Source: Candidatus Nomurabacteria bacterium (GTDB lineage: Bacteria; Patescibacteriota; Minisyncoccia; Phycocordibacterales; UBA9973). Taken from it: a DNA stretch of 64,000 nucleotides. The position numbers and the translations under genes are program-made. The notes beneath the pieces were generated by a model that was not told the DNA's origin, ran no database searches, and saw only the letters and a list, made by a program, of their open reading frames with translations. The first letter of the stretch is position 1. The number at the start of each line of letters is the position of its first letter. Positions 3,361-47,330 of the stretch are shown piece after piece. Location: positions 23,830 through 87,829 of the forward strand of contig JAHFNT010000002.1 of assembly GCA_023267195.1 (NCBI GenBank). Direction: 5' to 3'.

Positions 3361-3378
3361 ATATTATACTATATCTAA

Positions 3379-6255
3379 ATGATTTCAAGGATATATGTGG
3401 CAGACAAGAAAGATCCAAAATTTGTGCAGTCATACCTCTTCACGCACTTCTTTTCCCCCCAAGAACTTACTAGAATTGCTAACGCGCTCACTAATCCGGT
3501 TTTAGAAAATTTTTCTATTAACTCATTTCCCAAGATTAAGAAAACTTTTGCCATGGAGATTGGCTTCAAGCCAGGTGTCACAGATAATGTGGCAAAAACA
3601 GTAAAAGAAACTGTTGTTGATCTCTTTCGGGGTAAGGCAAAACCATTTGAAATATATTCTTCTAAAATTTATTTTACTGAAACATCTTATAATCCGCTCA
3701 TTGAGCGAGCGCACATAGCTCTGAAAAAACACGGGGTAATTCATTTCCCTCTTGAAATTCCGAAGGTGGTTTTAAAAAAAGAAACACCAGTAATAAATAT
3801 CGATTTGGCAGTTTCCGATGAAGAGCTTCTGAAAATTAGCAGGGAGGGAGTAGCAAATAAAGATGGCCACGCCAAAGGACGGGCAGGCACTAGGCGTGGG
3901 CCACTGGCTCTTGATTTAGCATCAATGAAAACGATTCAGGAATATTTTAAAAAATTAAAAAGAAAGCCGACAGATATTGAATTGGAATCCTTGGCGCAAA
4001 CCTGGTCTGAACACTGCAAACATACTATTTTTGCCAACCCTATAGATGAAATAAAAGATGGCTTATATAAAACATACATTAAGGGTGCAACAAATTTAAT
4101 TCGTAAACAAAAAGTAGGCAAGGGGCAGCAAGATTTTTGTGTTTCGGTATTCAGTGACAATTCCGGCGGAATAATTTTTGATAAAGATTATTTGATTACC
4201 CATAAAGTAGAGACCCACAACAGCCCTTCAGCGCTGGATCCTTTTGGAGGAGCTATTACTGGAATAGTGGGAGTAAATCGCGACACTATTGGCTTCGGAC
4301 TCGGCGCCAAGCCGGTTGCGAATGTTTATGGTTTTTGTTTTGGATATCCCGAAGACAAAAAAAGATTTTTTAAAGATAAAAATTTACAGGAGGAAATGCT
4401 TCCACCAAAAAGAATTATAGATGGAGTAATTAAAGGCATAAATACTGGGGGCAATTGTTCGGGCATTCCAACCCTGTCTGGTTTTGTAAAATTTGATGAT
4501 AGATATCGCGCTAAACCTTTGGTTTTTGCTGGAACTGTAGGGTTAATTCCTAAAAAAATAAATGGTAAACCTTCGCATATGAAAAAAGCGGGGGTTGGCG
4601 ATTATGTAGTAGTGGTTGGTGGAAGAGTCGGTTTAGACGGGATTCACGGCGCGACATTCTCTTCAGTCGCAATGGATGCTAATTCACCCGCTACAGCGGT
4701 GCAAATAGGCGACCCAATAACTCAAAAGAAATTAAGTGATGCGATAATAAAAGAAGCAAGAGATCTAAGTTTATACACCAGTATCACTGACGACGGCGCT
4801 GGAGGATTGTCTTGTTCCGTGGCTGAAATGGCAAAGGAATCCGGCGGAGCAGAAGTTGATTTAGAAAAAGTGCCGCTTAAATATCCCGGTCTGCGCCCTT
4901 GGGAAATTTGGATTTCAGAATCACAGGAGCGCATGACGTTGTCTGTACCGAAAGATAAATGGAAAACTTTCCAGAAATTAATGGATAAAAGGGGGGTAGA
5001 AGCAACCATCATCGGAAAATTTACAAATTCTGGGAAATGTATCGTTAATTATAAAGGCAAAAAAATTATGGATATGGATATGGAATTCTTGCATGATGGA
5101 TTGCCGAAACATAATTTAACAACAGAAGCCATTTTACCCCTACCCAACCTCCCCCTTGGTAAGGGGGAGGAGAAAGGAGGGGGTCTAACCCAGACTCTAG
5201 AAAATTTACTTGCTCAAAAAAACATTTCTGGCTTTTCTTTTATCTCCGAGCAATACGATCACGAAGTGCAAGGAACATCTGTGTTGAAACCTCTCTCTGG
5301 GCGAGGCCGGATAAATACTGATGCGCAAGTTTTCAGGCCAGTTTTTAATTCAAATAAAGGAGTTGTGTTAACTTCTAGCACTTATCCTTCGTATGGAGAT
5401 ATTAGCACCTACCACATGGCTGCCTGTGCTATTGACACAGCCATAAGAAACATAGTTACCGCTGGCGGTAAACTTTCCCATTTAGCAATATTGGACAATT
5501 TCTGCTGGTGTTCGTCTAATGATCCTAGACGCCTAGCTCAGCTTAAAGATGCTGTGAAGGCTTGTTACGACTATGCTGTAGGATATAGTACACCATTTAT
5601 TTCTGGTAAGGACAGCATGTTTAATGATTTCAAAGGATACGACGAAAAGGGCAACCCTGTGGCTATTTCTATTCCTCCAACACTGCTTATTTCTGCTATT
5701 AGTGTTATGCCCAATTTACACAAAACAATCTCTCCTGAATTTAAAAAGGCTGGCGATATAATTTATTTGCTTGGAGAAACAAAGGACGAACTTGGTGGAG
5801 GAGAATATTTAAAAATGCTTGGAGTTGTTGGAAATAATGTGCCAAAAGTAAATTTAGAAAAAAACCTAAAAACATATCTGGTGCTGGAAAAAGCAATAGA
5901 AAAAGAACTCGTAGCTTCCGCACTTTCTGTAACTTCTGGTGGTATAGGAGTCGCGTTAGCTAAAGCATGCATTGGCGGAATGCTTGGTTGTAAAATCTCT
6001 TTAGACTCCATAGGCAAAGCCTACGGGGTGGATGTAAAATTGTTTTCCGAAAGCCAAGGGAGAATTTTAGTTTCAGTCCCTCCTAAAAATATTCCTGCAT
6101 TCGAAAAAATTATAAAAAATATTCCTCACACCAATTTAGGTAAGATTATAAAGGACGGAAAAATCATTGTAACGGCTGGAAAAAATAAAATTTTAGAAAC
6201 AAAAGTAAAAAAACTGCACAATGTTTATCATAGCTTTTCAGATAGTATGAAATAA
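3379..6255 (+). CDS. purL: Phosphoribosylformylglycinamidine synthase subunit PurL with fused PurS-like N-terminal domain
   Basis: PurL/AIR-synthase-related motifs are present (TGIVGVNRDTIGFGLGAKPVANVYGFCFGYPE; GGRVGLDGIHGATFSS). The PurS-like segment begins around MEIGFKPGVTDNVAKTV at 3553. The first 58 codons (3379-3552) have no recognisable similarity, so the true start may be 3553. Confidence 0.85.
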   Translation: MISRIYVADKKDPKFVQSYLFTHFFSPQELTRIANALTNPVLENFSINSFPKIKKTFAMEIGFKPGVTDNVAKTVKETVVDLFRGKAKPFEIYSSKIYFTETSYNPLIERAHIALKKHGVIHFPLEIPKVVLKKETPVINIDLAVSDEELLKISREGVANKDGHAKGRAGTRRGPLALDLASMKTIQEYFKKLKRKPTDIELESLAQTWSEHCKHTIFANPIDEIKDGLYKTYIKGATNLIRKQKVGKGQQDFCVSVFSDNSGGIIFDKDYLITHKVETHNSPSALDPFGGAITGIVGVNRDTIGFGLGAKPVANVYGFCFGYPEDKKRFFKDKNLQEEMLPPKRIIDGVIKGINTGGNCSGIPTLSGFVKFDDRYRAKPLVFAGTVGLIPKKINGKPSHMKKAGVGDYVVVVGGRVGLDGIHGATFSSVAMDANSPATAVQIGDPITQKKLSDAIIKEARDLSLYTSITDDGAGGLSCSVAEMAKESGGAEVDLEKVPLKYPGLRPWEIWISESQERMTLSVPKDKWKTFQKLMDKRGVEATIIGKFTNSGKCIVNYKGKKIMDMDMEFLHDGLPKHNLTTEAILPLPNLPLGKGEEKGGGLTQTLENLLAQKNISGFSFISEQYDHEVQGTSVLKPLSGRGRINTDAQVFRPVFNSNKGVVLTSSTYPSYGDISTYHMAACAIDTAIRNIVTAGGKLSHLAILDNFCWCSSNDPRRLAQLKDAVKACYDYAVGYSTPFISGKDSMFNDFKGYDEKGNPVAISIPPTLLISAISVMPNLHKTISPEFKKAGDIIYLLGETKDELGGGEYLKMLGVVGNNVPKVNLEKNLKTYLVLEKAIEKELVASALSVTSGGIGVALAKACIGGMLGCKISLDSIGKAYGVDVKLFSESQGRILVSVPPKNIPAFEKIIKNIPHTNLGKIIKDGKIIVTAGKNKILETKVKKLHNVYHSFSDSMK

Positions 6256-6285
6256 TCACATATCAGCCATGGCGTATATGTAAAT

Positions 6286-8028
6286 ATGACACAAAAAACA
6301 GAAAACCGAATATGCCAAAATTGTAAAAAAGATTTCGTCATTGAGCCGGAAGATTTTAATTTTTATGAAAAAATAAAAGTCCCTCCGCCAACTTTTTGCG
6401 CTGACTGTCGAGCGCAAAGAAGAATGAGTTTTATGAATGAACGAACTCTCTATAAAAGAAAATGTGATCTGACGGGTGGATCAATAATTTCTCTTTTTCC
6501 TGAAAATTCTGAAGTACCTGTGTATTCTCCTAAAGCGTGGTGGAGCGATGAATGGAATGCAATGGACTATGGACAAGAGTATGACTTTTCAAAACCTTTT
6601 TTTGAACAATTTAGTAAACTTTTGAGGCGAGTTCCGCAGTTTGCTCTCCAAAATCAATACACCACCCTGATTCGTACAGAATACGTGAATATGGGCACAA
6701 ATCTAAAAGACTGTTATATGGTATTCAATACTTCGTACAGCGAAGAATCAGCCTATACAACCTTTTTCCTGCATGGTAAAAAGTGTTTTGACATTTACAA
6801 AGGTGAAAAGCTTGAGCTTTGTTATGAAAGCTCACGACTGCATCAGTGTTATCGAGCTTTATACTGTGAGGATTCAGCCGATAGTTTTGATATTTCTTTT
6901 TCATACGACTTAAGAAATTGCAATAACTGTTTCGGGTGTTCGGGGTTGGTAGGCAAATCTTATTGTATTTTTAATCAACAACATACGAAAGAAGAATATG
7001 TTGAAGAAATTAAAAAATATAATCTTGGATCATACAAGACCGTAGAAGAGATAAAAAAGAAAGCAGAAAAAATAAGACAAACGCTTCCGAGAAGATTCAT
7101 GGAAGCAAGTCATAATGTAAATATAACTGGAAACAGGATATATAATTCCAAAAATTCTTATAACTGCTTTGAGGTAAACGGTCTTGAAAATAGTAAGTAT
7201 TGCCAATTTGTATATTACAAACCCGCACGGGATTGTTACGATATGACTTTGTGGGGACAAAATGCAACACGTGTTTATGAGTGTATGGGAGCGGGAGACA
7301 GCCAGGATATGATTAAGTTTTCCTTTGATTGTTGGGCGCCCGCAACGAACATTGAGTACTCGTATCACATTACTACACAAAATAAAAATCTTTTTGGTTG
7401 TGTTGGATTAAAAAATAAAGATTACTGTATTCTTAACAAGCAGTACACAAAAGAAGAGTACGAGGAGATGATTCCTAAAATAAAAAAACATATGGATGAA
7501 ATGCCTTACATAGATAAACGAGGGGTAGTTTACAAGTACGGAGAATTTTTCCCTTCAGAAATTTCACTTTTTGCCTATAATGAAAGTTTTGCTAATAGTT
7601 ACTTTCCTTTAGTGGAAGAAGAAGCAATTAAAAAAGGTTTCAGATGGAAAGAGATATCTATAAATAAATATGAGATTACCGTTACGGCCAAAGACTTGCC
7701 AGACGATATCAAGGACGTTGATGAGCCAATTTTAAACCAAGTTATTGAATGTGAAATTTCTAAACGGGCATTTCGCATAACCCCCTCAGAATTTCAATTC
7801 TACAAATCTATGAATATTCCACTTCCACGCCTTCATCCAGATGAACGCCATAAAAACAGATTAAGCAGAGAAAATCCACTGAAGCTCTGGCATAGAACTT
7901 GTATGTGCGATAAGGCAAATCATTATAATCATACAAGTCAATGCGAAGTAGAATTTGAAACAAGTTATGCGCCAGAGCGGCCAGAAATTATATACTGTGA
8001 AAAGTGTTATCAACAAGAAGTATATTAA
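6286..8028 (+). CDS. Cysteine-rich multi-zinc-ribbon protein, paralog P1 of a 5-member family of unknown function
   Basis: N-terminal zinc ribbon: CQNCKKDFVIEPEDFNFYEKIKVPPPTFCADCRAQRR. Duplicated core: NCNNCFGCSGLVGKSYCIFNQQHTKEEY and LFGCVGLKNKDYCILNKQYTKEEY. Also KHMDEMPYIDKRGVVYKYGEFFP and the C-terminus ETSYAPERPEIIYCEKCYQQEVY, all shared with P2-P5. Confidence 0.8.
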   Translation: MTQKTENRICQNCKKDFVIEPEDFNFYEKIKVPPPTFCADCRAQRRMSFMNERTLYKRKCDLTGGSIISLFPENSEVPVYSPKAWWSDEWNAMDYGQEYDFSKPFFEQFSKLLRRVPQFALQNQYTTLIRTEYVNMGTNLKDCYMVFNTSYSEESAYTTFFLHGKKCFDIYKGEKLELCYESSRLHQCYRALYCEDSADSFDISFSYDLRNCNNCFGCSGLVGKSYCIFNQQHTKEEYVEEIKKYNLGSYKTVEEIKKKAEKIRQTLPRRFMEASHNVNITGNRIYNSKNSYNCFEVNGLENSKYCQFVYYKPARDCYDMTLWGQNATRVYECMGAGDSQDMIKFSFDCWAPATNIEYSYHITTQNKNLFGCVGLKNKDYCILNKQYTKEEYEEMIPKIKKHMDEMPYIDKRGVVYKYGEFFPSEISLFAYNESFANSYFPLVEEEAIKKGFRWKEISINKYEITVTAKDLPDDIKDVDEPILNQVIECEISKRAFRITPSEFQFYKSMNIPLPRLHPDERHKNRLSRENPLKLWHRTCMCDKANHYNHTSQCEVEFETSYAPERPEIIYCEKCYQQEVY

Positions 8029-8029
8029 A

Positions 8030-8800
8030 ATGAAACACAATAAACCAAAAATTATAATTTTATCCGGATATGGGTTGAACTGCGAGGAAGAAACAAAGTT
8101 CGCTTTTGAGTGGGTGGGTGGCAACGTGAATATTGTACACATTAACGATCTTATAGCGAAGCCAGGGATGCTTAAAGAATATGACATTATGGTTTTCCCG
8201 GGTGGATTTTCGTATGGAGATGATACTGGGAGCGGAAAAGCTTATGCTAATAAATTTAAAAATCATTTAGCAAAAGAACTCGCGGAATTTTTATCGCGCG
8301 ATACGCTAGTGATTGGTATTTGTAACGGATTTCAAATCATCACCAATCTCGGAATTTTACCCGGTGGACTTACGTATAATAAAAATGAAAAATATTTAGA
8401 TAGGTGGGTTGACTTGGAAGTAAAAGGCGAGAGCCCTTGGCTTTCCGGAATTAAAAAAATATCACTGCCAATCGCGCACGGCGAGGGACATTATGTTATT
8501 TCCCAAAAAGAATATAAAGAAATGGAAAAAAGAAAACAAATTGCTTTTACTTATACTAAGGGAGAAATCTGTAATTTTCAAAACTTAGAGAAAAACCCAA
8601 ACGGTTCTGATTATGACATTGCTGGAGTTTTGGCATATAATGGCAGGGTACTGGGGCTTATGCCACACCCAGAACGTGCAATGTTTCCACACCAGAGCCC
8701 GCTTTGGCAAATGAACAAAACTAAACAAAAGGAGGGGGCAGGTTTACAGATTTTTAAAAACGCAATTAATTATTTCAGAAAAAATAAGCGACGAAAATGA
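8030..8800 (+). CDS. purQ: Phosphoribosylformylglycinamidine synthase glutaminase subunit PurQ
   Basis: Class-I glutamine amidotransferase: KIIILSGYGLNCEEE...IGICNGFQI (catalytic Cys)...HPER. The start ATG at 8030 lies just after the P1 stop at 8028. The ORF-track extension back to 7955 overlaps P1 and is rejected. Confidence 0.85.
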   Translation: MKHNKPKIIILSGYGLNCEEETKFAFEWVGGNVNIVHINDLIAKPGMLKEYDIMVFPGGFSYGDDTGSGKAYANKFKNHLAKELAEFLSRDTLVIGICNGFQIITNLGILPGGLTYNKNEKYLDRWVDLEVKGESPWLSGIKKISLPIAHGEGHYVISQKEYKEMEKRKQIAFTYTKGEICNFQNLEKNPNGSDYDIAGVLAYNGRVLGLMPHPERAMFPHQSPLWQMNKTKQKEGAGLQIFKNAINYFRKNKRRK

Positions 8801-10194
8801 ACGAACTGAAAGAAAAATGTGGAATCGTGGGCATATACGGGGCTTCGTTGCCTGTTTCTAGACTGGCGTTTTTCGCTTTGTTTGCGCTTCAACATAGAGG
8901 TCAAGAGGCCTCTGGCCTCACTACAAGCGACGGCAGAAAACTTCACACCCATAAAGGCGCCGGATTAGTGGCTCAAGTTTATAAAGAAAAAGATATAGAC
9001 AGTTTAAAAGGGTTTTTGGGTATAGGCCATAATAGATACTCGACCTCTGCCGGAGAAGCCCTAGACCATGCTCAGCCGGTGGTCAACGTGGAAAATTCTT
9101 TTGCGCTCGCCCACAACGGAAATCTGCCGAGTGTAAAAATGCTGGAGAAATTTCTTTCATCAAAAAAAATACCGACGAAGAACCACTCTGATTCTGAGCT
9201 TGTAACTGATGCTATTAGTTTTTATCTAAAAAATAATAATTCAATAATTGAGTCGGTGAAGAAAGTTTTCCCTCTGATTACCGGAGCTTTTTCTATGGTC
9301 ATGATGGATAAAAATAATTTAGTAGCGGTCCGAGATTCTTGCGGTATGCGCCCGCTATCGCTTGGCACTATAGGCAAGGGTTATGTTGTGGCTTCAGAAA
9401 CTTGCGCGCTCGATACAATCGGCGCATCTTTTGTGCGCGAAATAATCCCAGGAGAAATGATAATAATAAATAAAAATGGCTTAAAAAGCATAAAACTGGC
9501 AAAACCCAATCCCAAGCACGATATCTTTGAATACGTATATTTTGCCCGCCCAGATAGTATTTTTAATGGAAAATTAATTTATGAGGTAAGAAAAAACTTT
9601 GGCAAAACACTAGCACGAGAATGTTTGCTCAAAGTAGATATGATTGTACCTGTACCTGATACAGGCGTACCGGTGGCGCTCGGATACAGTGAAGTCTCAG
9701 GTATCCCTATGGAAATGGCCTTAGTGAAAAATCGCTACGTACATAGAACTTTTATTGAGCCTAGCCAAAAATCACGAGAACATAGCGTGGCTCTCAAGTT
9801 AATACCTTTAAAGTCAATACTAAAAGGTAAAACAATCGCCGTTATTGATGATTCAATAGTACGGGGAACAACCAGTAAAAGATTAGTTGAAACATTATTC
9901 AAGGCAGGCGCCAAGGAGGTTCATTTTTTAGTGTCCTCACCACCTGTGCGATATCCAGATTTTTACGGAATCGACACTCCGAAACAAAAAGAACTTATTG
10001 CTTCAAATAAAAATATTAAACAAATCAGAAAATTCCTAGGAGCCACCTCCCTCTATTTTCTATCACTCAAGGGTTTACTGGACTCAATCGGCCTACCCAA
10101 AGAACATCTATCCACTTCGCTTTTTACTGGTATTTACCCTATTGATCTAAAAGAAAGAAAACACGAAATAAATTATGATACCCCCAAAGAATAA
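8797..10194 (+). CDS. purF: Amidophosphoribosyltransferase
   Basis: The N-terminal nucleophile MNELKEKCGIVGIYG, the Ntn glutaminase domain and a C-terminal PRTase domain (VIDDSIVRGTT) are present. Confidence 0.9.
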   Translation: MNELKEKCGIVGIYGASLPVSRLAFFALFALQHRGQEASGLTTSDGRKLHTHKGAGLVAQVYKEKDIDSLKGFLGIGHNRYSTSAGEALDHAQPVVNVENSFALAHNGNLPSVKMLEKFLSSKKIPTKNHSDSELVTDAISFYLKNNNSIIESVKKVFPLITGAFSMVMMDKNNLVAVRDSCGMRPLSLGTIGKGYVVASETCALDTIGASFVREIIPGEMIIINKNGLKSIKLAKPNPKHDIFEYVYFARPDSIFNGKLIYEVRKNFGKTLARECLLKVDMIVPVPDTGVPVALGYSEVSGIPMEMALVKNRYVHRTFIEPSQKSREHSVALKLIPLKSILKGKTIAVIDDSIVRGTTSKRLVETLFKAGAKEVHFLVSSPPVRYPDFYGIDTPKQKELIASNKNIKQIRKFLGATSLYFLSLKGLLDSIGLPKEHLSTSLFTGIYPIDLKERKHEINYDTPKE

Positions 10195-10801
10195 AAAAAG
10201 GATAGCAGTTCTTATTTCAGATACGGGAACCGGTACTAACCTTCAGGCTATCATTGATGGAGTTGAAGCCGGTTCAATTCAGGCTGAAATTTGTGCGGTT
10301 GTTTCCGATACACCAGGGGCGCTCGGGTTAGAACGAGCGAGAAAACATAATTTAAAGATTGAAATCTGTGGAGCCAAAGAACTGCTATTACCGCTCTTGC
10401 AAAAACTAGATCCCAACTATATCTGCCTCGCAGGCTGGAAACAAATTATTTTACAAGAAGTAATCCTGGCTTTCCCCAATAGAATTTTAAACCTGCATCC
10501 AGGTTTAATTCCAGATGCAGTAGATACGTTAGCCAAAAACCCTGACGGAACAAGTGCGCTTTGGAATAAGGGGATGCTCACAACTAAAGCAATTCAGAAT
10601 TTCTTAGACCAAGAAAAAACTTTTGCTGGTTCTTCAATCCATTTTTTAACATCCCTATTTGATTTTGGTCCAGTTTTGGGTAGAACTTTTGAAAAGATTG
10701 AAGATTATGACAATGTTGAATCTTTATATTCACGGCTGAAGAAAAAAGAAAATAAATTATATGTGGAAGTTTTAGAGAAATTAATAAATGGCCAAAATTA
10801 A
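10175..10801 (+). CDS. purN: Phosphoribosylglycinamide formyltransferase
   Basis: KRIAVLISDTGTGTNLQAIID...LAGWKQIILQEV...LNLHPGLIP matches the GAR transformylase signature. The start overlaps the purF end by 20 nt. Confidence 0.85.
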   Translation: MIPPKNKKRIAVLISDTGTGTNLQAIIDGVEAGSIQAEICAVVSDTPGALGLERARKHNLKIEICGAKELLLPLLQKLDPNYICLAGWKQIILQEVILAFPNRILNLHPGLIPDAVDTLAKNPDGTSALWNKGMLTTKAIQNFLDQEKTFAGSSIHFLTSLFDFGPVLGRTFEKIEDYDNVESLYSRLKKKENKLYVEVLEKLINGQN

Positions 10802-12089
10802 TAAAATTTTAATAATAGGTAGCGGGGGTAGGGAACATGCGATTGGTTGGAGAATTGCACAATCAAAACGTGCGGGAAAAATTTTCTTTGCGCCCGGAAA
10901 TGGAGGCACAAAAAAAATCGGAACCAACGTAGAGATAAAAGCAACGGACATAAAAGGGATTTTAGAGTTTGCTCAAAGGGAAAGAATAGATTTAACTCTC
11001 GCCTTGCCGGATGATCCGCTCGCACTTGGCATTGTCGATCTTTTTGAGAAAAATGGCCTAAGGGTTTGGGGTCCGACAAAGGCAGCATCTAAACTTGAAT
11101 GGTCAAAAGCTTTTGCAAAAGATTTCATGCAGAGACACAACCTACCAACAGCCAAATTTGAGATATTTGATAATTTCGAAAAGGCAAAAAGTTATATTGA
11201 AACACAATCCTTTCCCATTGTCATAAAAGCAAGCGGGTTAGCACTTGGTAAAGGTGTAGTAATTTGTAAAAACAAAGAGGGAGCGAGCAAGACACTAGAA
11301 AATATTTTGGTAAAAAAGATCTTTGGCGATTCTGGTAATGAAGTTGTAATTGAAGAATTTTTAGTCGGCCCAGAAATTTCTATCCACGTATTCTCTGATG
11401 GGGAAAATTATAAAATGCTTCCCCCGTCACAAGACCACAAGAAAATAGGCGAGCAAGATACAGGCTTAAATACAGGCGGCATGGGTACCATAGCGCCTCT
11501 CCCATTTATGTCAGAAAAGTTGATGGTAGAAATTGAAAAGACTATTGTGGCACCAACGCTGGCGGCAATGCAGAAGGAAGGTAACCCTTTTGTTGGATTA
11601 TTGTACCCAGGCCTTATTCTTACTAAAAACGGCCCCAGGATCCTTGAATTCAACGTACGGTTTGGCGATCCAGAAACGCAGACATATATGCGCCTCTTGG
11701 AAACCGACATTTTAGACATTTTTGATGCTTGTATTGATAAAAAGTTGGACAAGCTTGAAATAAAGTGGAAAGATCTTTATGGTTGCACCATAGTGCTCGC
11801 ATCTGGTGGATATCCGGAAAATTACGAAAAGGGGAAAATTATTTCTGGGATAGAGGAGGCACAAAAAGATCCTGCGATCGTGGTCTTTCACGCTGGCACT
11901 AAAAGAGATGAGAAGGAAAATTTAATTACAAATGGCGGACGGGTACTGGGGGTAAGTGCAACTGGAGAAAGTTTACAACTAGCCTTAGTTAAGGCTTACG
12001 AAGCAGTGTTAAAGATATCTTTCTCGGGAATGCAATACAGAAAAGATATCGGGCAGTCTGCGTTAAAAATTTCTAATTATCCCAATTAA
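10788..12089 (+). CDS. purD: Phosphoribosylamine-glycine ligase
   Basis: KILIIGSGGREHAIGWRIAQS with an ATP-grasp core (VIKASGLALGKGV). The start overlaps the purN end. Confidence 0.9.
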   Translation: MAKINKILIIGSGGREHAIGWRIAQSKRAGKIFFAPGNGGTKKIGTNVEIKATDIKGILEFAQRERIDLTLALPDDPLALGIVDLFEKNGLRVWGPTKAASKLEWSKAFAKDFMQRHNLPTAKFEIFDNFEKAKSYIETQSFPIVIKASGLALGKGVVICKNKEGASKTLENILVKKIFGDSGNEVVIEEFLVGPEISIHVFSDGENYKMLPPSQDHKKIGEQDTGLNTGGMGTIAPLPFMSEKLMVEIEKTIVAPTLAAMQKEGNPFVGLLYPGLILTKNGPRILEFNVRFGDPETQTYMRLLETDILDIFDACIDKKLDKLEIKWKDLYGCTIVLASGGYPENYEKGKIISGIEEAQKDPAIVVFHAGTKRDEKENLITNGGRVLGVSATGESLQLALVKAYEAVLKISFSGMQYRKDIGQSALKISNYPN

Positions 12090-13401
12090 ACGAGTGTTCG
12101 CGATCAGGTCCCGTACCCACAGAAACAATACTTACATTTAGATTAGAAAGTTTCCTTTTTATATAGTTTAAATAGGTAGCAAGTTCCTGGGAAACTTTCT
12201 CTTTGTCGTTAATGCCGAAATTTGCATTTCCCCAGCCCGGCATTTCTTCAGTATTTACGCCCGTTACCTGATCTAGGTATAATGGGAATGTTTCTAAAAC
12301 TTTTCCCTTACTAACATATCCAATGACAACTTTTATTTTATCACTTAAGCAAATATCGGCTTTATTGATAAAAATTTTATTTGCTCCTGAAAGTTCTATG
12401 GCGTAACGTAACGCGAACAAGTCAAGCCAACCGCACATTCTGGGACGCCCAGTTGTCGCTCCGAACTCGTGGCCAGCATCCTGAAAAAGCTTTTCTAGAA
12501 CGACATCTTCCATTCTTGCGGGGAAGTTTCCACCACCAACTTTGGTTGTATAAGCCTTAATAACTCCATATACATTGCGGATTACAGTATGCGGCACACC
12601 AAGACCGAGGCAGACATTCGCTGGCAGAGTATTACTACTGGTCACATTGGGATAATCCCCAAAATCAATATCAAGCATCACTGCTTGCGCGCCTTCCGCT
12701 AAAATATTTTTACCTTCTTTAAGTTTTGCTTGAATTAGAAATGGCAAATCACAAATGTTTAATTTTTTTATTTCCTTTATTGAATTATCCCACTTTTCTT
12801 TCGCTTCTTTTATTTTTTCTAAATTGATTTCAAAGCCATACTTATTTCTGTACATCTCTAAAAGATTCAGGTGAAATTCTGTGAGATTCGCTATTTTTTC
12901 TTCAAAGTTAGGCAATAACACATCGCCAACTAGCAACCCACTCCTAGCGCGGGAATCACTATAAGCTGGACCAATACCTCTACTGGTAGTGCCTACTTTC
13001 GTGCCTAATTTACTTCTCTTGTGTTCATCGGCTTGATCTAAAAATGGGTGTAGATAGGAAACCAACTTTGCGCGATTAGAAATATAAAGACGAGAATTTA
13101 TTTCGAAACCTAAATTTTCAAGTTCTCTAATTTCTTTAATTAAAGAGACTGTGTCCACCACCACTTCGTTCCCTATGTATAGTTCTATATCTTTCTGCAG
13201 ACATCCTGAAGGAATAATATGGCCTATAAAAGTTTTACTGCCTTGTTTGATGGTATGTCCAGCATTTGCTCCACCCTGAAAACGCGCCACACCCGAATAG
13301 ACCCCATGAGAAAGAAGTTCGTCTATGTTTTTTCCCTTGCCTTCATCTCCCCACTGAAGACCTACAAGCACATCTACGAATCCTTCTTTTTGTTTATTCA
13401 T
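12073..13401 (-). CDS. purA: Adenylosuccinate synthetase
   Basis: The P-loop VLVGLQWGDEGKGKNIDELL and the GTTSRGIGPAY and GATTGRPRMCGWLD motifs are present. The gene converges with and overlaps the purD end. Confidence 0.9.
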   Translation of the reverse strand: MNKQKEGFVDVLVGLQWGDEGKGKNIDELLSHGVYSGVARFQGGANAGHTIKQGSKTFIGHIIPSGCLQKDIELYIGNEVVVDTVSLIKEIRELENLGFEINSRLYISNRAKLVSYLHPFLDQADEHKRSKLGTKVGTTSRGIGPAYSDSRARSGLLVGDVLLPNFEEKIANLTEFHLNLLEMYRNKYGFEINLEKIKEAKEKWDNSIKEIKKLNICDLPFLIQAKLKEGKNILAEGAQAVMLDIDFGDYPNVTSSNTLPANVCLGLGVPHTVIRNVYGVIKAYTTKVGGGNFPARMEDVVLEKLFQDAGHEFGATTGRPRMCGWLDLFALRYAIELSGANKIFINKADICLSDKIKVVIGYVSKGKVLETFPLYLDQVTGVNTEEMPGWGNANFGINDKEKVSQELATYLNYIKRKLSNLNVSIVSVGTGPDREHSFNWDN

Positions 13402-13423
13402 GATTTAATCAAAAAATTTTAAA

Positions 13424-14941
<1,518 letters not shown>

Positions 14942-14951
14942 CTAGCATATT

Positions 14952-16478: not shown

Positions 16479-16490
16479 TATAATAAATTT

Positions 16491-18251: not shown

Positions 18252-18265
18252 AAAAAAATATAAAC

Positions 18266-19753
18266 ATGCAAAAGAAAATTAATTCGGCCTTAATTTCAGT
18301 TTTTAATAAAGATGGATTAGAGGAAATTGTAAAACTTCTTCAGAAGTACGGCGTAAAAATAATTTCCACCGGCGGTACGGCAGAATTTATTCGCAAGCTG
18401 AATGTTCCAGTTACTGAAGTGGAGACTATGACCGGTTTTCCTTCAGTGTTTGGTGGTAGAGTAAAAACATTGCAACCGCAAATTTTTGGCGGTATTCTAA
18501 ATCGCCGAGATAATGCCGAAGATCAAAAAGAAAAGAAAGAACACAAGATTGAAGACATTGATCTGGTGATAGTAGACCTTTATCCTTTCGAAGAAACACT
18601 GGGAGCTGGTGGAAATGAAGAAGAAATTATCGAGAAAATTGATATCGGTGGAATTTCTCTAATCCGTGCCGCAGCGAAAAACTTTAACGATGTGGTAGTC
18701 GTTCCATCAAAGAAACAATACCGAGACCTTATAGATATATTAAAAAAGAGAAATGAAACTACGATAGAAGAACGTAAGAAATTTGCAGGTCAGGCATTTG
18801 AAATAACAAGTAAATACGACACTGCTATTCGCGGATATTTCGAGGGCATACATCTTCGCTATGGGGAAAATCCACACCAAAAAGCTCAGTTTATAGGCAA
18901 TCTAGAGGAAAGTTTTACTCAACTGCACGGCAAAGAACTTTCTTATAACAATCTCATAGATACGGAGGCGGCAATAGCAGTCGTAAATGATTTTGAAAAA
19001 CCAGCTTTCGCGATCATCAAGCACATGAATGCGTGCGGACTAGCCACGAAGGAAGAGGGGAATCTGCTCGAGGCATATAAGGCAGCTTACAATGCTGATC
19101 CACTTTCGGCTTTCGGCGGAATTCTTGCGGCCAACAGAATTATAGAAGAAGATATAGCGAAACTTATTAGAGAACAGAAACTTTTTGTGGAAGTTATTAT
19201 TGCTCCGGATTTTTCTAAAGAAGCTCTCATTATCTTGATGGAGAAAAAAGATTGCCGAATTCTTAAGTGGCACAACTCAGCTCTTCCTGTTAAACAAATG
19301 CGCACCTGTCTCACTGGGATACTTGAGCAAGATCGAGATACGCAAGTAGAAAAAGTTAGTAATTTAAAAACGGTTACCGAGCGCGAACCAACAAAAGAAG
19401 AAGTAAATGATTTACTGATGGCTTCTATCGCCACCAAACATTTGAAATCAAATTCTGTAGCCTTGGTAAAAAATGGCGCACTTATTTCTATGGGTTGCGG
19501 GCAAACCTCGCGTATTGATGCCCTCAAGCAAGCGATTGAAAAAGCAAAAAAATTTGGTTTTGATTTGCGCGGTACGGTTTTGTCTTCGGAAGCATTTTTC
19601 CCATTTCCGGACTGCATAGAACTCGCCGGAGAAAATGGGGTTAGTGCTGTGATCCATCCAGGGGGTTCAAAGAACGATCAAGCTTCCATTGACGTGGCGA
19701 ATAAATTTAATATGGCGATGGTAACAACCGGCTTTAGGCATTTTAAGCATTAA
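18266..19753 (+). CDS. purH: Bifunctional AICAR transformylase / IMP cyclohydrolase
   Basis: MGS-like N-terminus ALISVFNKDGLEEIVKLLQKYGVKIISTGGTAEF followed by an AICARFT domain. The start is taken at MQKKINSAL, since the longer ORF beginning at 18227 overlaps P2. Confidence 0.9.
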   Translation: MQKKINSALISVFNKDGLEEIVKLLQKYGVKIISTGGTAEFIRKLNVPVTEVETMTGFPSVFGGRVKTLQPQIFGGILNRRDNAEDQKEKKEHKIEDIDLVIVDLYPFEETLGAGGNEEEIIEKIDIGGISLIRAAAKNFNDVVVVPSKKQYRDLIDILKKRNETTIEERKKFAGQAFEITSKYDTAIRGYFEGIHLRYGENPHQKAQFIGNLEESFTQLHGKELSYNNLIDTEAAIAVVNDFEKPAFAIIKHMNACGLATKEEGNLLEAYKAAYNADPLSAFGGILAANRIIEEDIAKLIREQKLFVEVIIAPDFSKEALIILMEKKDCRILKWHNSALPVKQMRTCLTGILEQDRDTQVEKVSNLKTVTEREPTKEEVNDLLMASIATKHLKSNSVALVKNGALISMGCGQTSRIDALKQAIEKAKKFGFDLRGTVLSSEAFFPFPDCIELAGENGVSAVIHPGGSKNDQASIDVANKFNMAMVTTGFRHFKH

Positions 19754-19770
19754 TATGCTAAAATAAAAAT

Positions 19771-20289
19771 ATGAAGAAATCGGACGTGGGCATAATAATG
19801 GGCTCAGATTCAGATTTGGAAATAATGGCTGAAGCGGCAAAAATTCTGGAAGAATTCGGCGTAACTTATGATATTACTGTAGCTTCCGCGCACCGAAGCC
19901 CTGATTTAGTTCATAAATATGCAACTAGCGCCAAAGAAGATCACGGATTTAAAGTAATAATTGCAGGTGCAGGCGGCGCGGCCCATTTAGCGGGAGTGGT
20001 AGCGTCTTTGGTTACAATACCTGTCATTGGAGTGCCAGTGAAAGCAAAAAGTTTAGATGGGCTTGATTCACTTTTTTCTACGGTAAATATGCCTCCGGGA
20101 GTGCCTGTGGCAACAGTAGGCATAAATGCCGCAAAAAACGCTGGCATACTCGCGGTCCAAATTTTAGCTCTATTTGATAAAGATTTAGAAAATAAATTAT
20201 TCGCTTATAAACAAAAGATGAGTGACGAGGTAAAACTAAAAGGAGAAAGATTGTCAGAAATTGGGTTTAAAAAATATTTGGAAAAATAG
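19771..20289 (+). CDS. purE: N5-carboxyaminoimidazole ribonucleotide mutase / AIR carboxylase catalytic subunit
   Basis: VGIIMGSDSDLEIM...IIAGAGGAAHLAGVVAS matches the PurE signature. Confidence 0.9.
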   Translation: MKKSDVGIIMGSDSDLEIMAEAAKILEEFGVTYDITVASAHRSPDLVHKYATSAKEDHGFKVIIAGAGGAAHLAGVVASLVTIPVIGVPVKAKSLDGLDSLFSTVNMPPGVPVATVGINAAKNAGILAVQILALFDKDLENKLFAYKQKMSDEVKLKGERLSEIGFKKYLEK

Positions 20290-20292
20290 AAA

Positions 20293-21468
20293 ATGAGCAA
20301 ACTGACTAAGCGAAAGATTTATTCAAAAGACGGAGTGGATGTAGCGGAAGAAGCTTTGTTTAGCAGTTTTGCAGGGTCTGTTTGTAAGGCGAGTTATAAA
20401 AATTCTCCTTTTATTGAAATTAAAGATTTATCCGGAGGCCAGTTTCGCGGCCCTCGGCCTTTTATTTTTAAAAACCTACCGAAAGGATATTTTATAGAAA
20501 CCTCCTCGGATGGAATTGGTACCAAAGGAATAATAATTGATGCAGCAAAAACTCACCACCTCGCTGCTTATGACATTATTGCCATGACAGCAAGCGACAT
20601 CACTCGCTTCGGCGGTATTCCGATCGCTTTTATCAATGTTTTTGATACAACTTCTATTGGGAATGGAGGCGACAAAGTAAGTAGAGTTTATAAAAGTGCA
20701 ATAGTGGGTTTGGGCAAGGTAGCCAAAGAAAATAAAATAGTAATCCTAAAAGGGGAAACAGCGCAAATGGGCGACGCGATAGGCTCAGAAATTAAAAATT
20801 CCAAAACAAAATTAAATTGGTCTGGAGTGATGATTGGCGCCTATCATAAAGATAAAATGATCACCGGAAAAAATTTAGCTCCAGGGCAAGTGATCGTTGC
20901 GCTCAAGGAGGAAGGTTTTAGATGTAATGGTATAAGTTCGATGCGCAAAGCGTTAAGGGAAAAATTCGGAAAGGAATGGTGGAAAAATCCGAAAGCAAAA
21001 CAAAGCATAAAACAAGCGGCTCATCCGTCAGTATTGTATGACAGGTATGTGAATACACTACATGGTTGGTTCAATAAAAATTTAAAACCAGAAATAAATA
21101 TCCATGGTATAGTTCATCTCTCGGGAGGCGCATTTCAAGAAAAATTGGCCAAGGATGTTCTCTTCCCTAAAAAGCTTTCCGCGGAACTTTTTGACTTATG
21201 GGAACCACCGAAGATCATGCGGGAATGCGCAGAGTGGCGTAAGATTACTGATGGGGAATTTTATGAAGTTTGGCATGGAGGACAAGGCATGCTATTAATT
21301 ATAGAAGAAAAAGATGCCAGTTATGCTATAAAGAGAGCAAGAGATTTTGGAATTAAAGCAAAAATCGCGGGTAAAATTACAAAAGAATCAATACCACAAG
21401 TTTTAATAAATTCTAAATTAACTCCCGGTAAAATTATTATTTATTCCGCCAAAGGCGGATTAGCTTAG
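20293..21468 (+). CDS. purM: Phosphoribosylformylglycinamidine cyclo-ligase (AIR synthetase), divergent
   Basis: The N-terminal YSKDGVDV resembles the PurM YKDAGVDI motif. The PurM/AIRS fold (DGIGTKGIII; GETAQMG) is present, and the gene sits in a pur operon context between purE and purC. Confidence 0.7.
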   Translation: MSKLTKRKIYSKDGVDVAEEALFSSFAGSVCKASYKNSPFIEIKDLSGGQFRGPRPFIFKNLPKGYFIETSSDGIGTKGIIIDAAKTHHLAAYDIIAMTASDITRFGGIPIAFINVFDTTSIGNGGDKVSRVYKSAIVGLGKVAKENKIVILKGETAQMGDAIGSEIKNSKTKLNWSGVMIGAYHKDKMITGKNLAPGQVIVALKEEGFRCNGISSMRKALREKFGKEWWKNPKAKQSIKQAAHPSVLYDRYVNTLHGWFNKNLKPEINIHGIVHLSGGAFQEKLAKDVLFPKKLSAELFDLWEPPKIMRECAEWRKITDGEFYEVWHGGQGMLLIIEEKDASYAIKRARDFGIKAKIAGKITKESIPQVLINSKLTPGKIIIYSAKGGLA

Positions 21469-21485
21469 GACTGAAAATAAACTTT

Positions 21486-22445
21486 ATGGAGATAGAAAAA
21501 ATAAAAGAGCATATAGATGATGTATTGATCGAAACAAATTTCAAAAATCTTGGCGATAAAAAAATAGGGAAAGTGCGTGATGTATATATAGCCGATGATC
21601 ATATCACTCTTATTGCTACTGATCGACACACTTCTTTTGATCGGAAAATTGCCGATGTGCCTTTCAAGGGCGAAGTGCTGAATCAGATTAGCTTGTTTTG
21701 GTTCAAGGAAACAAAAGACATTATCCAAAATCATATTTTAAGCGCTCCGGATCCTAATGTTGTGGTAGTAAAAAAATGCAAAGTTATACCAATAGAAATG
21801 GTCGTAAGAGGCTATCTGACAGGGTCTACGGCCACTTCACTTTGGACCCATTACAAAGACGGGGAAAGAGATTTTGGTGATTTTATTCTTCCAGATGGAA
21901 TGCGCAAAAATCAAAAATTAGAAAAAGTCGTCTTAACTCCCACTACCAAATCAGACGAACACGATAAACCTCTGACCTCTAAAGAAATAATTTCGCAAGG
22001 CCTCATGTCAGCAGAATTATGGAAAGAAGTCTCCGAATCAGCGTTAAAGCTTTTCAAAAGAGGCCAGGAAATTGCAGAAAAAAGGGGATTAATACTAGTG
22101 GATACAAAGTACGAATTTGGACTTGATGAAAGTGGTAAATTGATGCTAATTGATGAAATCCATACACCAGACTCATCCCGTTATTGGAAAAAAGCTACCT
22201 ATGAAGAGAGATTCAATAAGGGAGAGGAACCGGAATATTTCGACAAGGAATTTTTAAGACTTTGGTTTAAAGAACACTCTGACCCATATAAAGATGAAAT
22301 TTTACCAAAAGCTCCGCCGGAAATGGTTGCTGAACTCTCACGCAGGTATATTGAAATTTATGAGACGATCACCGGCAAACAGTTTGAGCACAACTTTTCA
22401 GAGCCAATTCTGGCAAGAATTACAAGAAATCTTAGAGGATTATAA
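21486..22445 (+). CDS. purC: Phosphoribosylaminoimidazole-succinocarboxamide synthase (long form)
   Basis: SAICAR synthetase motifs: LIATDRHTSFDRKIA, LILVDTKYEFG. Confidence 0.85.
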   Translation: MEIEKIKEHIDDVLIETNFKNLGDKKIGKVRDVYIADDHITLIATDRHTSFDRKIADVPFKGEVLNQISLFWFKETKDIIQNHILSAPDPNVVVVKKCKVIPIEMVVRGYLTGSTATSLWTHYKDGERDFGDFILPDGMRKNQKLEKVVLTPTTKSDEHDKPLTSKEIISQGLMSAELWKEVSESALKLFKRGQEIAEKRGLILVDTKYEFGLDESGKLMLIDEIHTPDSSRYWKKATYEERFNKGEEPEYFDKEFLRLWFKEHSDPYKDEILPKAPPEMVAELSRRYIEIYETITGKQFEHNFSEPILARITRNLRGL

Positions 22446-22449
22446 AGAT

Positions 22450-23835
22450 ATGTCATTGAATTCAATTTCACCAATAGACGGACGCTACCATAAATCAACC
22501 TCTATTTTATCGCGAGTCTTTAGTGAGAGGGGACTGATGCGCTACCGCGTGATGGTTGAGGGAGAATATTTGATTGCGTTATCAGAATTAAAAATTAAAT
22601 TAAGAAAATTATCTGATAGAGAAAAGAAAATAATTAGGACACTTTTTGATTTAACAGATGAAGATGCGCAGATTATTTCTGATATTGAACAAAAAGGCTA
22701 TAAAAATATCAAGGCCACCGATCATGACGTGAAAGCGGTAGAATATTTCATGAAAGACAAGCTCGAAGATACAACCCTAAAAGATATTTTAGAGTGGATT
22801 CATTTTGGATTAACCAGCGAGGATACCAATAATCTTTCTTATGGATTAATGCTTCGCGATGGAACAGAAATATTAATCCTAAAACTTGAAGAAATAATTA
22901 GGGAATTTAATAAGTTAACCAAAGAACACGCAAATCTTCCAATACTCGCCCGCACTCATGGTCAACCTGCTAGCCCAACAACTTTTGGAAAAGAGTTTAA
23001 GATTTTTTCTTCCAGACTAGAAAGACAAGTAAACAATTTAAAAAAGCAAGAAATTCTTTGCAAATTAAACGGCGCCACGGGCAATTATAACGCTCAAGTT
23101 ATAGCTTTCCCGAATATTGATTGGTTTAAATTCACCAAAACTTTCATCGCTCAATTGAATAAAACAGGGTCTGAAACTCTACGCCTAGAACCAAATTTAT
23201 TTACTACACAAATAGAATCCCATGACTCTTACGCCGAGATTTTTGACAACTTAAAAAGAATTAATACTATTCTGTTAGATTTTAATCAAGATATGTGGCG
23301 GTATATCAGTGATGAATGGATAATACAAAAACCGACAGAGGGAACAGTCGGGAGTTCCACCATGCCCCATAAAATCAACCCGATAAAATTTGAAAATAGC
23401 GAAGGAAACCTAGGAATAGCTAATGCTCTGTTTGAATTTTTTGGAAGAAAATTATCTATTTCTAGGCTGCAAAGAGATCTTTCTGATTCCACAGTGCAAA
23501 GAAATTTCGGTACAGCCTTTGGGCATTCTTTAATTGCCTATGAATACCTGCTAAAAGGATTAAATAAGGTAAGTGTAAATAAAAACAAAATTATCGAAGT
23601 ATTAAACAACCATCCAGAAATTATTGCAGAGGCAATCCAGACAATATTACGCCGTGAAGGAGCAGAAATGCCATATGAAAAATTGAAAGATTTTACTCGA
23701 GGTAAACAAGTTACCTTAGAGGACATACATAACTTTATAAATTCTTTAAAGATTAGTGAAAAAGTAAAAAAAGAACTTTTTAAAATTACTCCGGGAAATT
23801 ATATTGGTCTTGCTTCCAAGCTCGCTTCAAAGTAA
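22450..23835 (+). CDS. purB: Adenylosuccinate lyase
   Basis: MSLNSISPIDGRYHKSTS... with the fumarate-lyase signature GSSTMPHKINP. The start is taken at 22450, because the longer ORF-track start at 22294 overlaps purC. Confidence 0.9.
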   Translation: MSLNSISPIDGRYHKSTSILSRVFSERGLMRYRVMVEGEYLIALSELKIKLRKLSDREKKIIRTLFDLTDEDAQIISDIEQKGYKNIKATDHDVKAVEYFMKDKLEDTTLKDILEWIHFGLTSEDTNNLSYGLMLRDGTEILILKLEEIIREFNKLTKEHANLPILARTHGQPASPTTFGKEFKIFSSRLERQVNNLKKQEILCKLNGATGNYNAQVIAFPNIDWFKFTKTFIAQLNKTGSETLRLEPNLFTTQIESHDSYAEIFDNLKRINTILLDFNQDMWRYISDEWIIQKPTEGTVGSSTMPHKINPIKFENSEGNLGIANALFEFFGRKLSISRLQRDLSDSTVQRNFGTAFGHSLIAYEYLLKGLNKVSVNKNKIIEVLNNHPEIIAEAIQTILRREGAEMPYEKLKDFTRGKQVTLEDIHNFINSLKISEKVKKELFKITPGNYIGLASKLASK

Positions 23836-35649: not shown

Positions 35650-35664
35650 ATTGTAATTATAGCA

Positions 35665-46119: not shown

Positions 46120-46151
46120 ATTAAAAATACTCTAGCATAAAAAAGAAAAAA

Positions 46152-46185
46152 TGGCGACCGGCTTCCGTGAAAGGAAGCTGGCCGC
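46152..46185 (-). terminator. Rho-independent terminator for a minus-strand transcript (GGCGACCGGCUUCC-GUGAAA-GGAAGCUGGCCGCC stem-loop plus U-tract)
   Basis: A 14-bp stem with one mismatch, followed on the minus strand by AUUUUUUCUUUUUU (the plus-strand A-run at 46139-46150), 20 nt upstream of the prs start codon. Coordinates in 46120-46620 may be off by 1 nt relative to the ORF track. Confidence 0.6.
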
Positions 46186-46189
46186 CAAT

Positions 46190-46620: not shown

Positions 46621-46779
46621 TGTTTTTGAGTATTTTTACAGCGCAAATATCAGCCTTCGAAGACCTTTGGTAAAGCTGAAAAAGAAATAACTATTTGCTT
46701 GTATGTTGTTTTTATTCACAAGCACAGTATAGCGTATATTTTAAAAAAGACAAATTTAATTTGTGGATAAATTTAAAAT

Positions 46780-46813
46780 CGGCGACCGGTCCCATGAAAG
46801 AAACCAGTCGCCG
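46780..46813 (-). terminator. Second minus-strand terminator hairpin, sequence-related to the one at 46152-46185 (CGGCGACCGG-UCCCAUGAAAGAAA-CCAGUCGCCG)
   Basis: A 10-bp GC-rich stem followed on the minus strand by AUUUUAAAUUUA. Both hairpins share the GGCGACCGG arm and a GAAAG loop core. Confidence 0.5.
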
Positions 46814-46885
46814 ATGCGATGCGGTGGGCCAAGCCGCTTTTACCCCTCCGGCCCTAACGCCACTCAGGATCCCAAAGCATGCGGA

Positions 46886-47062: not shown

Positions 47063-47330
47063 GATTTCACCTCCAAAGAACGAAAATCAGCACTTCGATT
47101 GCGCTGTTTAATTAATTCCTTGTTTGGTTCGGTAGAAAAAAGAAATCAACAGAATAGCGCAAAAGCGGATGGTTTTGCGCCCCACCAAGATTTCGTTAAT
47201 GTATGTATTTTGTAGTTCTGTTTCATATTCATATTCTTTCACACCAATACTCTTGTATCTATGTACTAGTACATGATAACATGATAAAAAAATAATGCAA
47301 ATAATGCATGTGGATAAGTGGGATAAGAAA

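Follow-up and report, generated by a model that had tools for sequence, protein, structure and literature searches.

Why should a purine biosynthesis cluster be interrupted twice by genes for large cysteine-rich proteins that are paralogs of each other? The question is raised by a 64,000-nt stretch of DNA from Candidatus Nomurabacteria bacterium (GenBank assembly GCA_023267195.1, contig JAHFNT010000002.1), referred to here in its whole length as the window. One of the paralogous genes, P1, lies between purL and purQ, and the other, P2, between guaA and purH. The original prediction, made from the sequence alone, took this arrangement to mean that both genes are co-transcribed and probably co-regulated with purine synthesis, or that purine operons are a preferred site for their integration or retention. 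The interpretation that we consider probable is that of an ordinary pur cluster carrying conserved zinc-finger/solenoid passengers, which are labile in position and have no role specific to purine synthesis.

Purine biosynthesis cluster

The purine genes were identified from an open reading frame (ORF) listing and Pfam/NCBIfam scans of the window. Thirteen of them occupy positions 3379-23835 (about 20 kb), all where they had been predicted, in the order purL, P1, purQ, purF, purN and purD on the forward strand, purA and guaB on the reverse strand, and guaA, P2, purH, purE, purM, purC and purB again on the forward strand (Table 1). Across the cluster neighboring genes are spaced by −20 to +30 nt, and the two interruptions are as tight as originally described, with P1 lying 30 nt from purL and 1 nt from purQ, and P2 lying 12 nt from guaA and 14 nt from purH. 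The enzymes leading from phosphoribosyl pyrophosphate (PRPP) to inosine monophosphate were all found in the window except PurK and a free-standing PurS, and PurA, PurB, GuaB and GuaA of the adenosine and guanosine monophosphate branches are all encoded in the cluster. Because homologue alignments begin only at about residue 52 of the long purB ORF, its true start is most likely the ATG at 22450 (MSLNSISPIDGRY) and not the ORF start at 22294.

The formylglycinamidine ribonucleotide (FGAM) synthetase consists of a small-type PurL and a separate PurQ of the GATase_5 type. A PurS-like domain had been predicted at the N-terminus of PurL; an extension of about 180 residues is indeed present there, and large-PurL models align to the protein only from about residue 160-175 on, but the match to PurS (PF02700) is below threshold (E 0.1). 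P1 and P2 were considered as replacements for PurS and rejected, as they are proteins of about 580 residues without similarity to PurS, PurL has its own N-terminal extension, and the purL/purQ junction is empty in most relatives. The product of orf87, located downstream of purB and preceding the gene for penicillin-binding protein 2, is a small hydrophobic membrane protein, not PurS. PurE contains SAHRSP and GGAAHLAG, which we take to be class I motifs. As predicted, no purK stands beside purE, and a PurK-type ATP-grasp protein was not detected anywhere in the 64 kb, so that with a class-I-type PurE either purK lies elsewhere or N5-carboxyaminoimidazole ribonucleotide forms without PurK. No purine or ZTP riboswitch, nor any other Rfam family, reached gathering score across the window.

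Most members of the Candidate Phyla Radiation (CPR) have no purine pathway (PMC6744442), and a full one had been regarded as unusual for a CPR-type genome; for Paceibacteria it is not, as a complete pathway has been reported previously (PMC9166423). The cluster resembles the Bacillus subtilis operon purEKBCSQLFMNHD, with its three-part FGAM synthetase, in being a tightly spaced cluster for the same enzyme set with PurL and PurQ separate. It differs in gene order, in the embedded purA, guaB and guaA, in the absence of purK and of a free purS, in the 180-residue extension of PurL, and in the two foreign genes for proteins of about 580 residues. The cluster itself is an ordinary pur operon in an interrupted variant.

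Three genes of the cluster show two versions among relatives, whose loci are designated here by L numbers. Two non-orthologous versions of purM are 25-27% (L006, L011, L018, L021) and 81% (L009) identical to PurM of the window, and two of purN are 26-27% and 70-76% identical to that of the window (L005, L010, L012, L017, L021). Identity of purF to the window is bimodal, at 54-58% and 68-78% (L006, L010, L017, L018, L022). The pattern points to xenologous replacement within an otherwise syntenic cluster.

The purL/purQ junction in related genomes

We collected 16 distinct purL/purQ junctions in all, by searching GTDB genomes and JGI metagenomes with purQ, an unbiased anchor, and by look-ups anchored on the P1/P2 family. 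Ten of these are empty (L006, L008, L010, L011, L016, L017, L018, L020, L021, L022). In each of them the purL stop either overlaps the purQ start, in six cases as ATGA, or is separated from it by 1-2 nt, a spacing typical of translationally coupled genes. L006 has the uninterrupted layout purL-purQ-purF-purN-purD-purH-purE-purM-purC-purB. The six occupied junctions contain members of three different subfamilies, namely P1-type (window), P2-type (L014, L025) and a J-type of 553-556 residues (L007, L009, L024). In L025 the inserted gene and purL share an ATGA stop/start overlap. Upstream of the family member at the L009 junction (6997-8158) there are two further genes, one for a PemK/MazF toxin (E 1.6e-14) and one an unknown ORF of 239 residues, so this junction also accepts unrelated accessory genes. 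The original prediction looked to the same junction in relatives for presence or absence of the paralog, which is what we observed, and named unrelated genes at this point as evidence to the contrary, to which the cargo of L009 comes close. The 239-residue ORF carries an ILDLGCG motif and appears methyltransferase-like by eye; it has no match in Pfam.

The window and L014 share all 21 nt after the purL stop (CATATCAGCYATGGCGTATAT) and an unusual TENRIC N-terminus, although the junction gene of L014 is P2-type over its entire length. In L014 the ATG inside the shared motif serves as the start codon; in the window this frame is closed by a TAA four codons on, and P1 begins anew 8 nt beyond it. 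Such sharing suggests a junction filled already in a common ancestor, where the gene body of one subfamily later took the place of another's. Recent gene conversion between paralogs through their conserved termini, a form of cassette exchange, gave only weak signs, with third-position identity at the paralog ends only slightly raised, and is kept as a hint.

A large protein family in many operons

P1 and P2 are 46% identical (E 2e-179), as expected of the paralogs that had been described; their number has to be raised, since tblastn finds five copies in the window, P1 to P5, with pairwise identities of 40-47%. P4 and P5 stand in tandem just downstream of dnaJ and a gene for a TrwB-like ATPase. 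An exhaustive hidden Markov model search recovered 5,242 clusters (50% identity) at E ≤ 1e-3 and 2,280 at E ≤ 1e-30, and at least 7,973 of 8,000 scored candidates from a 90%-clustered database reached E ≤ 1e-3. Among the best 150 clusters nearly all are full length (550-600 residues), and 39 fetched members represent at least 25 subfamilies at the 55% level. All organism-named matches belong to Patescibacteria (Nomura-, Staskawicz-, Lipton- and Pacebacteria, Paceibacterota, Minisyncoccia), and they are labeled as hypothetical or generic Zn ribbon proteins. The family has no significant match in Pfam, NCBIfam, PADLOC or PHROGs, nor in sequence searches of the PDB with the whole-family profile and with its N- and C-terminal modules separately; a literature search returned no description of the family or of zf_Tbcl domains.

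Orthologues of a single subfamily were found in unrelated surroundings. The P1 subfamily (58-87% identity) occurs at four loci: at purL/purQ in the window; in L001, where an array of three plus three members surrounds vanY between scpB and mraY, a locus at which the window has P3 alone; upstream of rpoB in L003; and at murG/purF in L005. The P2 subfamily comprises more than 120 clusters at 69% identity or above, and in four of seven cases (L013, L015, L027, L028) its member lies in a region running from grpE/dnaK over a TraG-like ATPase to dnaJ. One family member stands between uvrC and spoU. With paralogs in so many different housekeeping operons, a specific tie to purine synthesis is not supported, nor is co-regulation, given a junction that is empty in 10 of 16 cases, is occupied elsewhere by three subfamilies, and has orthologues of its occupants in unrelated operons. 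A preferred retention site is supported only weakly: members do stand at four pur junctions, but equally in the dcw, uvr, rpoB, scpAB and dnaK/dnaJ regions, and two of five window copies in a pur cluster making up 31% of the sequence is the chance expectation. What we observe is that tightly coupled housekeeping operons in general, pur included, host the paralogs.

These genes are conserved like housekeeping genes. P2-type orthologues are 71-75% identical, compared with 70% for PurL, 72% for PurF and 76-79% for DnaJ. The P1 orthologue in L001 is 87% identical, with nine of its ten neighbors at about 68-82% and vanY at 47%. Third-codon positions at conserved residues are mostly only 45-60% identical and thus near saturation, for which reason dN/dS, the ratio of nonsynonymous to synonymous substitution, is very low. 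Synonymous saturation even at 87% protein identity marks these as constrained cellular genes, and such strong purifying selection indicates that the paralogs serve the cell.

Predicted protein architecture

AlphaFold2 models were obtained for P1 (predicted local distance difference test 84.2, predicted template modeling score 0.85) and P2 (88.6 and 0.87). The N-terminal 85 residues or so form two small zinc-finger-like units. From secondary structure in the models and cysteine positions, not from coordinates, we derived a treble-clef arrangement in which strands 6-9 and 16-19 surround C10/C13 and C38/C41 open an Arg-rich helix (39-47). The arrangement is repeated C-terminally, and the N- and C-modules are 32% identical (E 8e-13). 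The core is a tandem duplication, repeat A (about 129-242) being 37% identical to repeat B (about 280-395; E 2e-19), and both repeats terminate in CFGCxxLxxKxYCIxNxQYxKEEY.

With zf_Tbcl and zf_Tbcl_2 (PF13451, PF23477; TIGR04272, CxxC-x17-CxxC) the end modules share paired CxxC motifs of which the second opens an Arg-rich helix. The matches at both ends (residues 8-47 and 534-565) fall short of the curated cut-offs (16.8 bits where 24 are required, and 19.8 where 27 are), as does the TIGR04272 match in NCBIfam, and the Pfam domains themselves have no established function. For the core, only left-handed beta-helix proteins recur in Foldseek (best E 8.6e-4, TM-score ≤ 0.19, root-mean-square deviation 17-19 Å); because the superposition is poor, we call the core a beta-solenoid without claiming homology. 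In the models it shows a regular short-strand solenoid pattern that recalls LpxA, LpxD, GlmU and gamma-carbonic anhydrase, but it is Cys-rich, internally duplicated and without invariant His, so that the likeness is one of fold class only, and Pfam Hexapep (hexapeptide repeat) gave no match in the paralogs even at E ≤ 10.

In an alignment of 114 sequences invariance is confined to C, F, Q, N, G and R, the near-invariant residues are mostly aromatic, Cys, Pro, Gly and Arg with a few acidic ones, and no His is invariant or conserved. No signal peptide or transmembrane segment was apparent by eye in the P1 and P2 translations. We infer, as the weakest step of our argument, that the family protein is a cytoplasmic, zinc-stabilized binding or bridging protein and not an enzyme; that its ligand might be nucleic acid is a guess from the predicted fold.

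Residues following the first CxxC tend to form a motif that goes with the genome and not with the subfamily: EDFNFYEK occurs in four of the five window copies and in all copies of L013-L015 and L027, and a DDFGFYEK-like motif in four of the six L001 copies and in L007, L009 and L026. Between subfamilies, N-module identity is 68.5% within a genome and 64.4% between genomes (p = 0.017, uncorrected for relatedness), which hints at concerted evolution or at co-evolution with a partner common to the copies.

Expression signals

Two divergent gene pairs define operon starts in the cluster, cofD/purL with a gap of 18 nt (3361-3378) and guaB/guaA with one of 25 nt (14927-14951). At the unambiguous starts of purL and guaA, TATACT lies 8 nt upstream of the ATG. 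TATACT or TATAGT is found 7-8 nt from the starts of cofD, purL and guaA, guaB has no box in range, and no Shine-Dalgarno-like motif is present; most genes of the pur cluster also have none. A −10-like hexamer at this spacing precedes 7 of 14 first genes as compared with 6 of 34 internal genes. Such short upstream regions with a −10 box suggest that leaderless mRNAs are widespread in the organism. P1 has no qualifying box. No terminator-like hairpin was found after purL, P1, guaA or P2, and since terminator-like and promoter-like sites are no commoner than in shuffled sequence, read-through is the simplest assumption.

The co-transcription that had been proposed is therefore plausible given gaps of 1-30 nt and the ATGA overlap in L025, and more so for P1 than for P2; spacing has turned out to be weak evidence for it in view of the leaderless-type starts, and it is unproven because P2 has a TATAAT at the spacing of leaderless operon starts.

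In the purL-P1 spacer lies a 36-nt imperfect palindrome, ATATCAGCCATGGCGTATAT, and a related sequence, ATCTACGCTATAGCGTATAT (58946-58965), lies between P5 and P4, upstream of P4. The 14-mer GCYATRGCGTATAT has five matches where 0.8 are expected, a number reached in none of 100 shuffles. A palindrome-related motif is also present in L014 (7998-8011), its internal ATG being the start of the junction gene; the motif is half of the 36-nt palindrome.

Two further signals were observed near family genes. The sequence GAAGT(A/T)TATTAA specifies the conserved C-terminus of the family, EVY followed by the stop codon, and thereby puts a −10-like AT-rich hexamer directly ahead of the next gene (e.g., at 8026-8029). 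In the P3-mraY spacer (35650-35664) a perfect TATAAT lies 6 nt upstream of the mraY ATG.

Interpretation

We propose that the purine cluster of this Paceibacteria (Nomurabacteria-like) bacterium is ordinary and functional, and that P1 and P2 are not purine genes. Different subfamilies of their family are found in co-oriented, tight junctions of many housekeeping operons (pur, dcw/mur, uvr, rpoB, scpAB, dnaK-dnaJ). The ancestral home of the family seems to be in arrays next to TraG/VirD4-like ATPases in the dnaK/dnaJ region. P1 and P2 would be expressed largely through read-through or translational coupling from the host operon, P2 possibly also from a leaderless promoter of its own. Judging from their architecture, the proteins would be zinc-dependent in binding or bridging, probably of nucleic acid, rather than enzymes. 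As the real lead of this work we regard this family of zinc-finger/beta-solenoid proteins, large and unannotated as it is, and the association of its genes with those for TraG-like ATPases.

Several points weigh against this proposal. It leaves unexplained by what mechanism the genes change position. Three subfamilies recur at purL/purQ and members stand at four pur junctions across genomes, which could reflect a real link with nucleotide metabolism or a hotspot. A perfect TATAAT lies 6 nt ahead of the P2 start codon and a TATAGT ahead of that of P3, and operator-like palindromes directly precede P1 and P4. Because true operon starts have only 18-25 nt of upstream DNA, tight spacing says little about co-transcription, and it is from spacing only that we deduce read-through, just as the binding function is deduced from fold and conservation.

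The boxes and palindromes are what would be expected if P1 and P2 were transcribed independently and were no more than neighbors of the pur genes, with leaderless promoters of their own, perhaps palindrome-controlled, and the pur cluster split into separate operons. The TATAAT of P2 parallels the TATACT of the purL and guaA starts, which have no Shine-Dalgarno motif, the boxes are more frequent at first than at internal genes, and the palindrome recurs before P4 and in L014. We regard this explanation as unlikely, though credible. Without terminator-like hairpins after purL, P1, guaA and P2, read-through would still occur; P1 has no box and the inserted gene of L025 overlaps purL; and −10-like hexamers are common in DNA of 38% GC, where our promoter scan showed no enrichment over shuffles.

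Another explanation starts from the ATPase neighbors. In three of the four P2-type loci L013, L015, L027 and L028, the P2-type gene lies immediately downstream of a TraG/VirD4/HerA-like ATPase gene that includes a true zf_Tbcl_2 domain (43 bits). As many as five members form an array in the dnaK/TraG-like ATPase/dnaJ region. An hhalign comparison of the TraG-like ATPase tail with the family aligned only a 31-residue finger, with a probability of 17%. As separate observations, the TrwB-like ATPase is more conserved than DnaJ and always precedes dnaJ and a membrane protein of about 200 residues, and family arrays together with small winged helix-turn-helix genes stand between the TraG-like and TrwB-like ATPases. 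The paralogs could then be components of an unrecognized cellular system, confined on named matches to Patescibacteria, in which 5-20 zinc-finger/beta-solenoid adaptors per genome work with TraG/VirD4-like ATPases, one of them with the same zf_Tbcl_2 finger, and with DnaK/DnaJ, their genes being placed within essential operons, at junctions with translational coupling, to let dosage follow core metabolism. As a whole this idea appears rather unlikely to us.

A functional link of the paralogs with purine or nucleotide metabolism was also considered, in which they would assist or regulate FGAM synthetase as its partners, or belong to a nucleotide-economy system (DNA/RNA uptake or processing with the TraG-like ATPase) and placement among pur genes would be selected for co-expression. 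It would account for the occupation of purL/purQ in 6 of 16 cases by three subfamilies, for members at purN/purD (L021; in L017 downstream of purN), murG/purF (L005) and guaA/purH (window), for the ATGA overlap with purL in L025, and for 3 of 10 family-protein loci falling beside or inside a pur cluster. The three look-ups that landed on pur clusters all began from P1 or P2 orthologues, and L014 and L025 are not independent because their flanking synteny is common to both. As purL and purQ are directly coupled at ten of 16 junctions, the dcw, rpoB, scpAB, uvr and dnaK/dnaJ regions also house orthologues of the same subfamilies, two of five window copies in 31% of the DNA matches chance, and PurL has its own extension where PurS would act, we judge such a link decidedly unlikely.

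Finally, P1 and P2 might be selfish single-gene elements that invade coupled operon junctions and use host transcription. Like free-standing homing endonuclease genes in phage operons, they are single genes set among co-transcribed ones, found in some relatives and missing from others at one junction, with clean borders and without an obvious promoter or terminator of their own. Orthologues at different loci in genomes whose housekeeping proteins are about 70-80% identical, and the PemK toxin gene at the same junction in L009, fit this as well. A member in L028 (4511-6166) is split into two ORFs of 305 and 202 residues with a divergent N-terminus and is probably a decaying copy or pseudogene. 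Treble-clef folds occur in His-Me nucleases too; a BFVD search gave only weak HNH matches (E > 1).

The comparison fails in other respects. P1 and P2 are flanked only by short chance repeats, with neither terminal inverted repeats nor target duplications at their borders, and occupied and empty purL/purQ junctions compared with each other show no target duplication. In Pfam, NCBIfam and PHROGs the paralogs match no transposase, integrase or nuclease domain, they have no invariant His, and the family profile has no match on IMG/VR viral contigs. Copies within the window are only 40-47% identical, with no near-identical pair among the five, and orthologues are deeply conserved at or above the level of housekeeping genes, under strong purifying selection. 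Different subfamilies occupy one junction, unlike site-specific homing. We consequently rejected the mobile-element explanation, which we consider very unlikely, and favor conserved cellular genes of labile position over a homing or transposing element. A reading as defense genes was likewise rejected, as none of the five paralogs has a PADLOC match at E ≤ 0.01.

Other features of the window

Besides the purine cluster and the five paralogs, the window encodes PRPP synthetase, which supplies the substrate of the pathway, and the TrwB-like ATPase (Table 1). Between prs and a small TrpR-like ORF lie about 1.2 kb (46120-47300) that are apparently GC-rich locally, have no ORF of at least 100 residues, and contain two similar starts of the form GGCGACCGG-hairpin (at about 46150 and 46778). 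Rfam gave no match to this region, neither at gathering score nor at E ≤ 0.1, and it contains no tRNA or tmRNA gene. One or two unrecognized structured RNAs may be encoded there.

Table 1. Features of the window and ATPase genes of related loci; coordinates refer to the window unless an L number is given.
Feature	Coordinates	Strand	Description
purL	3379..6255	+	FGAM synthetase II, small-PurL type; AIRS, AIRS_C, FGAR-AT_linker; TIGR01736 PurL, 515 bits
Palindrome	6252..6287	.	36 nt, imperfect, fills purL-P1 spacer; inverted-repeat search
P1	6286..8028	+	P1-type subfamily, 580 aa; purL/purQ junction; intact ORF
purQ	8030..8800	+	FGAM synthetase glutaminase subunit; GATase_5, E 4e-71
purF	8797..10194	+	GATase_6/7, Pribosyltran
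purN	10175..10801	+	Formyl_trans_N
purD	10788..12089	+	GARS_N, GARS_A, GARS_C
purA	12073..13401	-	Adenylsucc_synt, E 2e-125
guaB	13424..14926	-	IMPDH, CBS
guaA	14952..16478	+	GATase, GMP_synt_C
P2	16491..18251	+	P2-type subfamily (well conserved), 586 aa; guaA/purH junction; intact ORF
purH	18266..19753	+	AICARFT_IMPCHas, MGS; homologue alignments begin at this ATG
purE	19771..20289	+	AIRC; TIGR01162, 208 bits; class-I-type motifs
purM	20293..21468	+	divergent type; weak AIRS and AIRS_C matches
purC	21486..22445	+	SAICAR_synt
purB	22450..23835	+	Lyase_1, ASL_C; most likely start, moved from 22294
P3	35665..37413	-	heads mraY-ftsW-murG, divergent from vanY
prs	45100..46119	-	PRPP synthetase; Pribosyltran_N, Pribosyl_synth
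P4	57228..58937	-	tandem with P5; zf_Tbcl_2 match, E 6e-4
P5	58971..60725	-	directly downstream of dnaJ
TrwB/VirD4/HerA-like ATPase	61842..63413	-	orthologues 83-86% identical, flanking family arrays in L013, L015, L027
TraG/VirD4/HerA-like ATPase	L013 5955-7931		
TraG/VirD4/HerA-like ATPase	L015 5867-7969		
TraG/VirD4/HerA-like ATPase	L027 5661-7976		
TraG/VirD4/HerA-like ATPase	L028 15229-17349		

Implications

The practical consequence for annotators is that the neighborhood of these paralogs should not lead to the assignment of a purine function. The family takes up a notable share of a very small genome, with five genes of about 1.75 kb in 64 kb of the window and up to six in 22 kb of a relative, and its members are conserved like housekeeping enzymes across Paceibacteria while having neither an annotation nor a solved relative. 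Working out their function would fill a sizeable gap in the annotation of the CPR proteome. The paralogs are found repeatedly inside translationally coupled essential operons without disrupting them, and the family may thus illuminate how streamlined genomes accommodate and express expanding gene families. If the adaptor system outlined above were real, it would represent new machinery, and possibly a new operon-embedded form of gene organization, in ultra-small bacteria.

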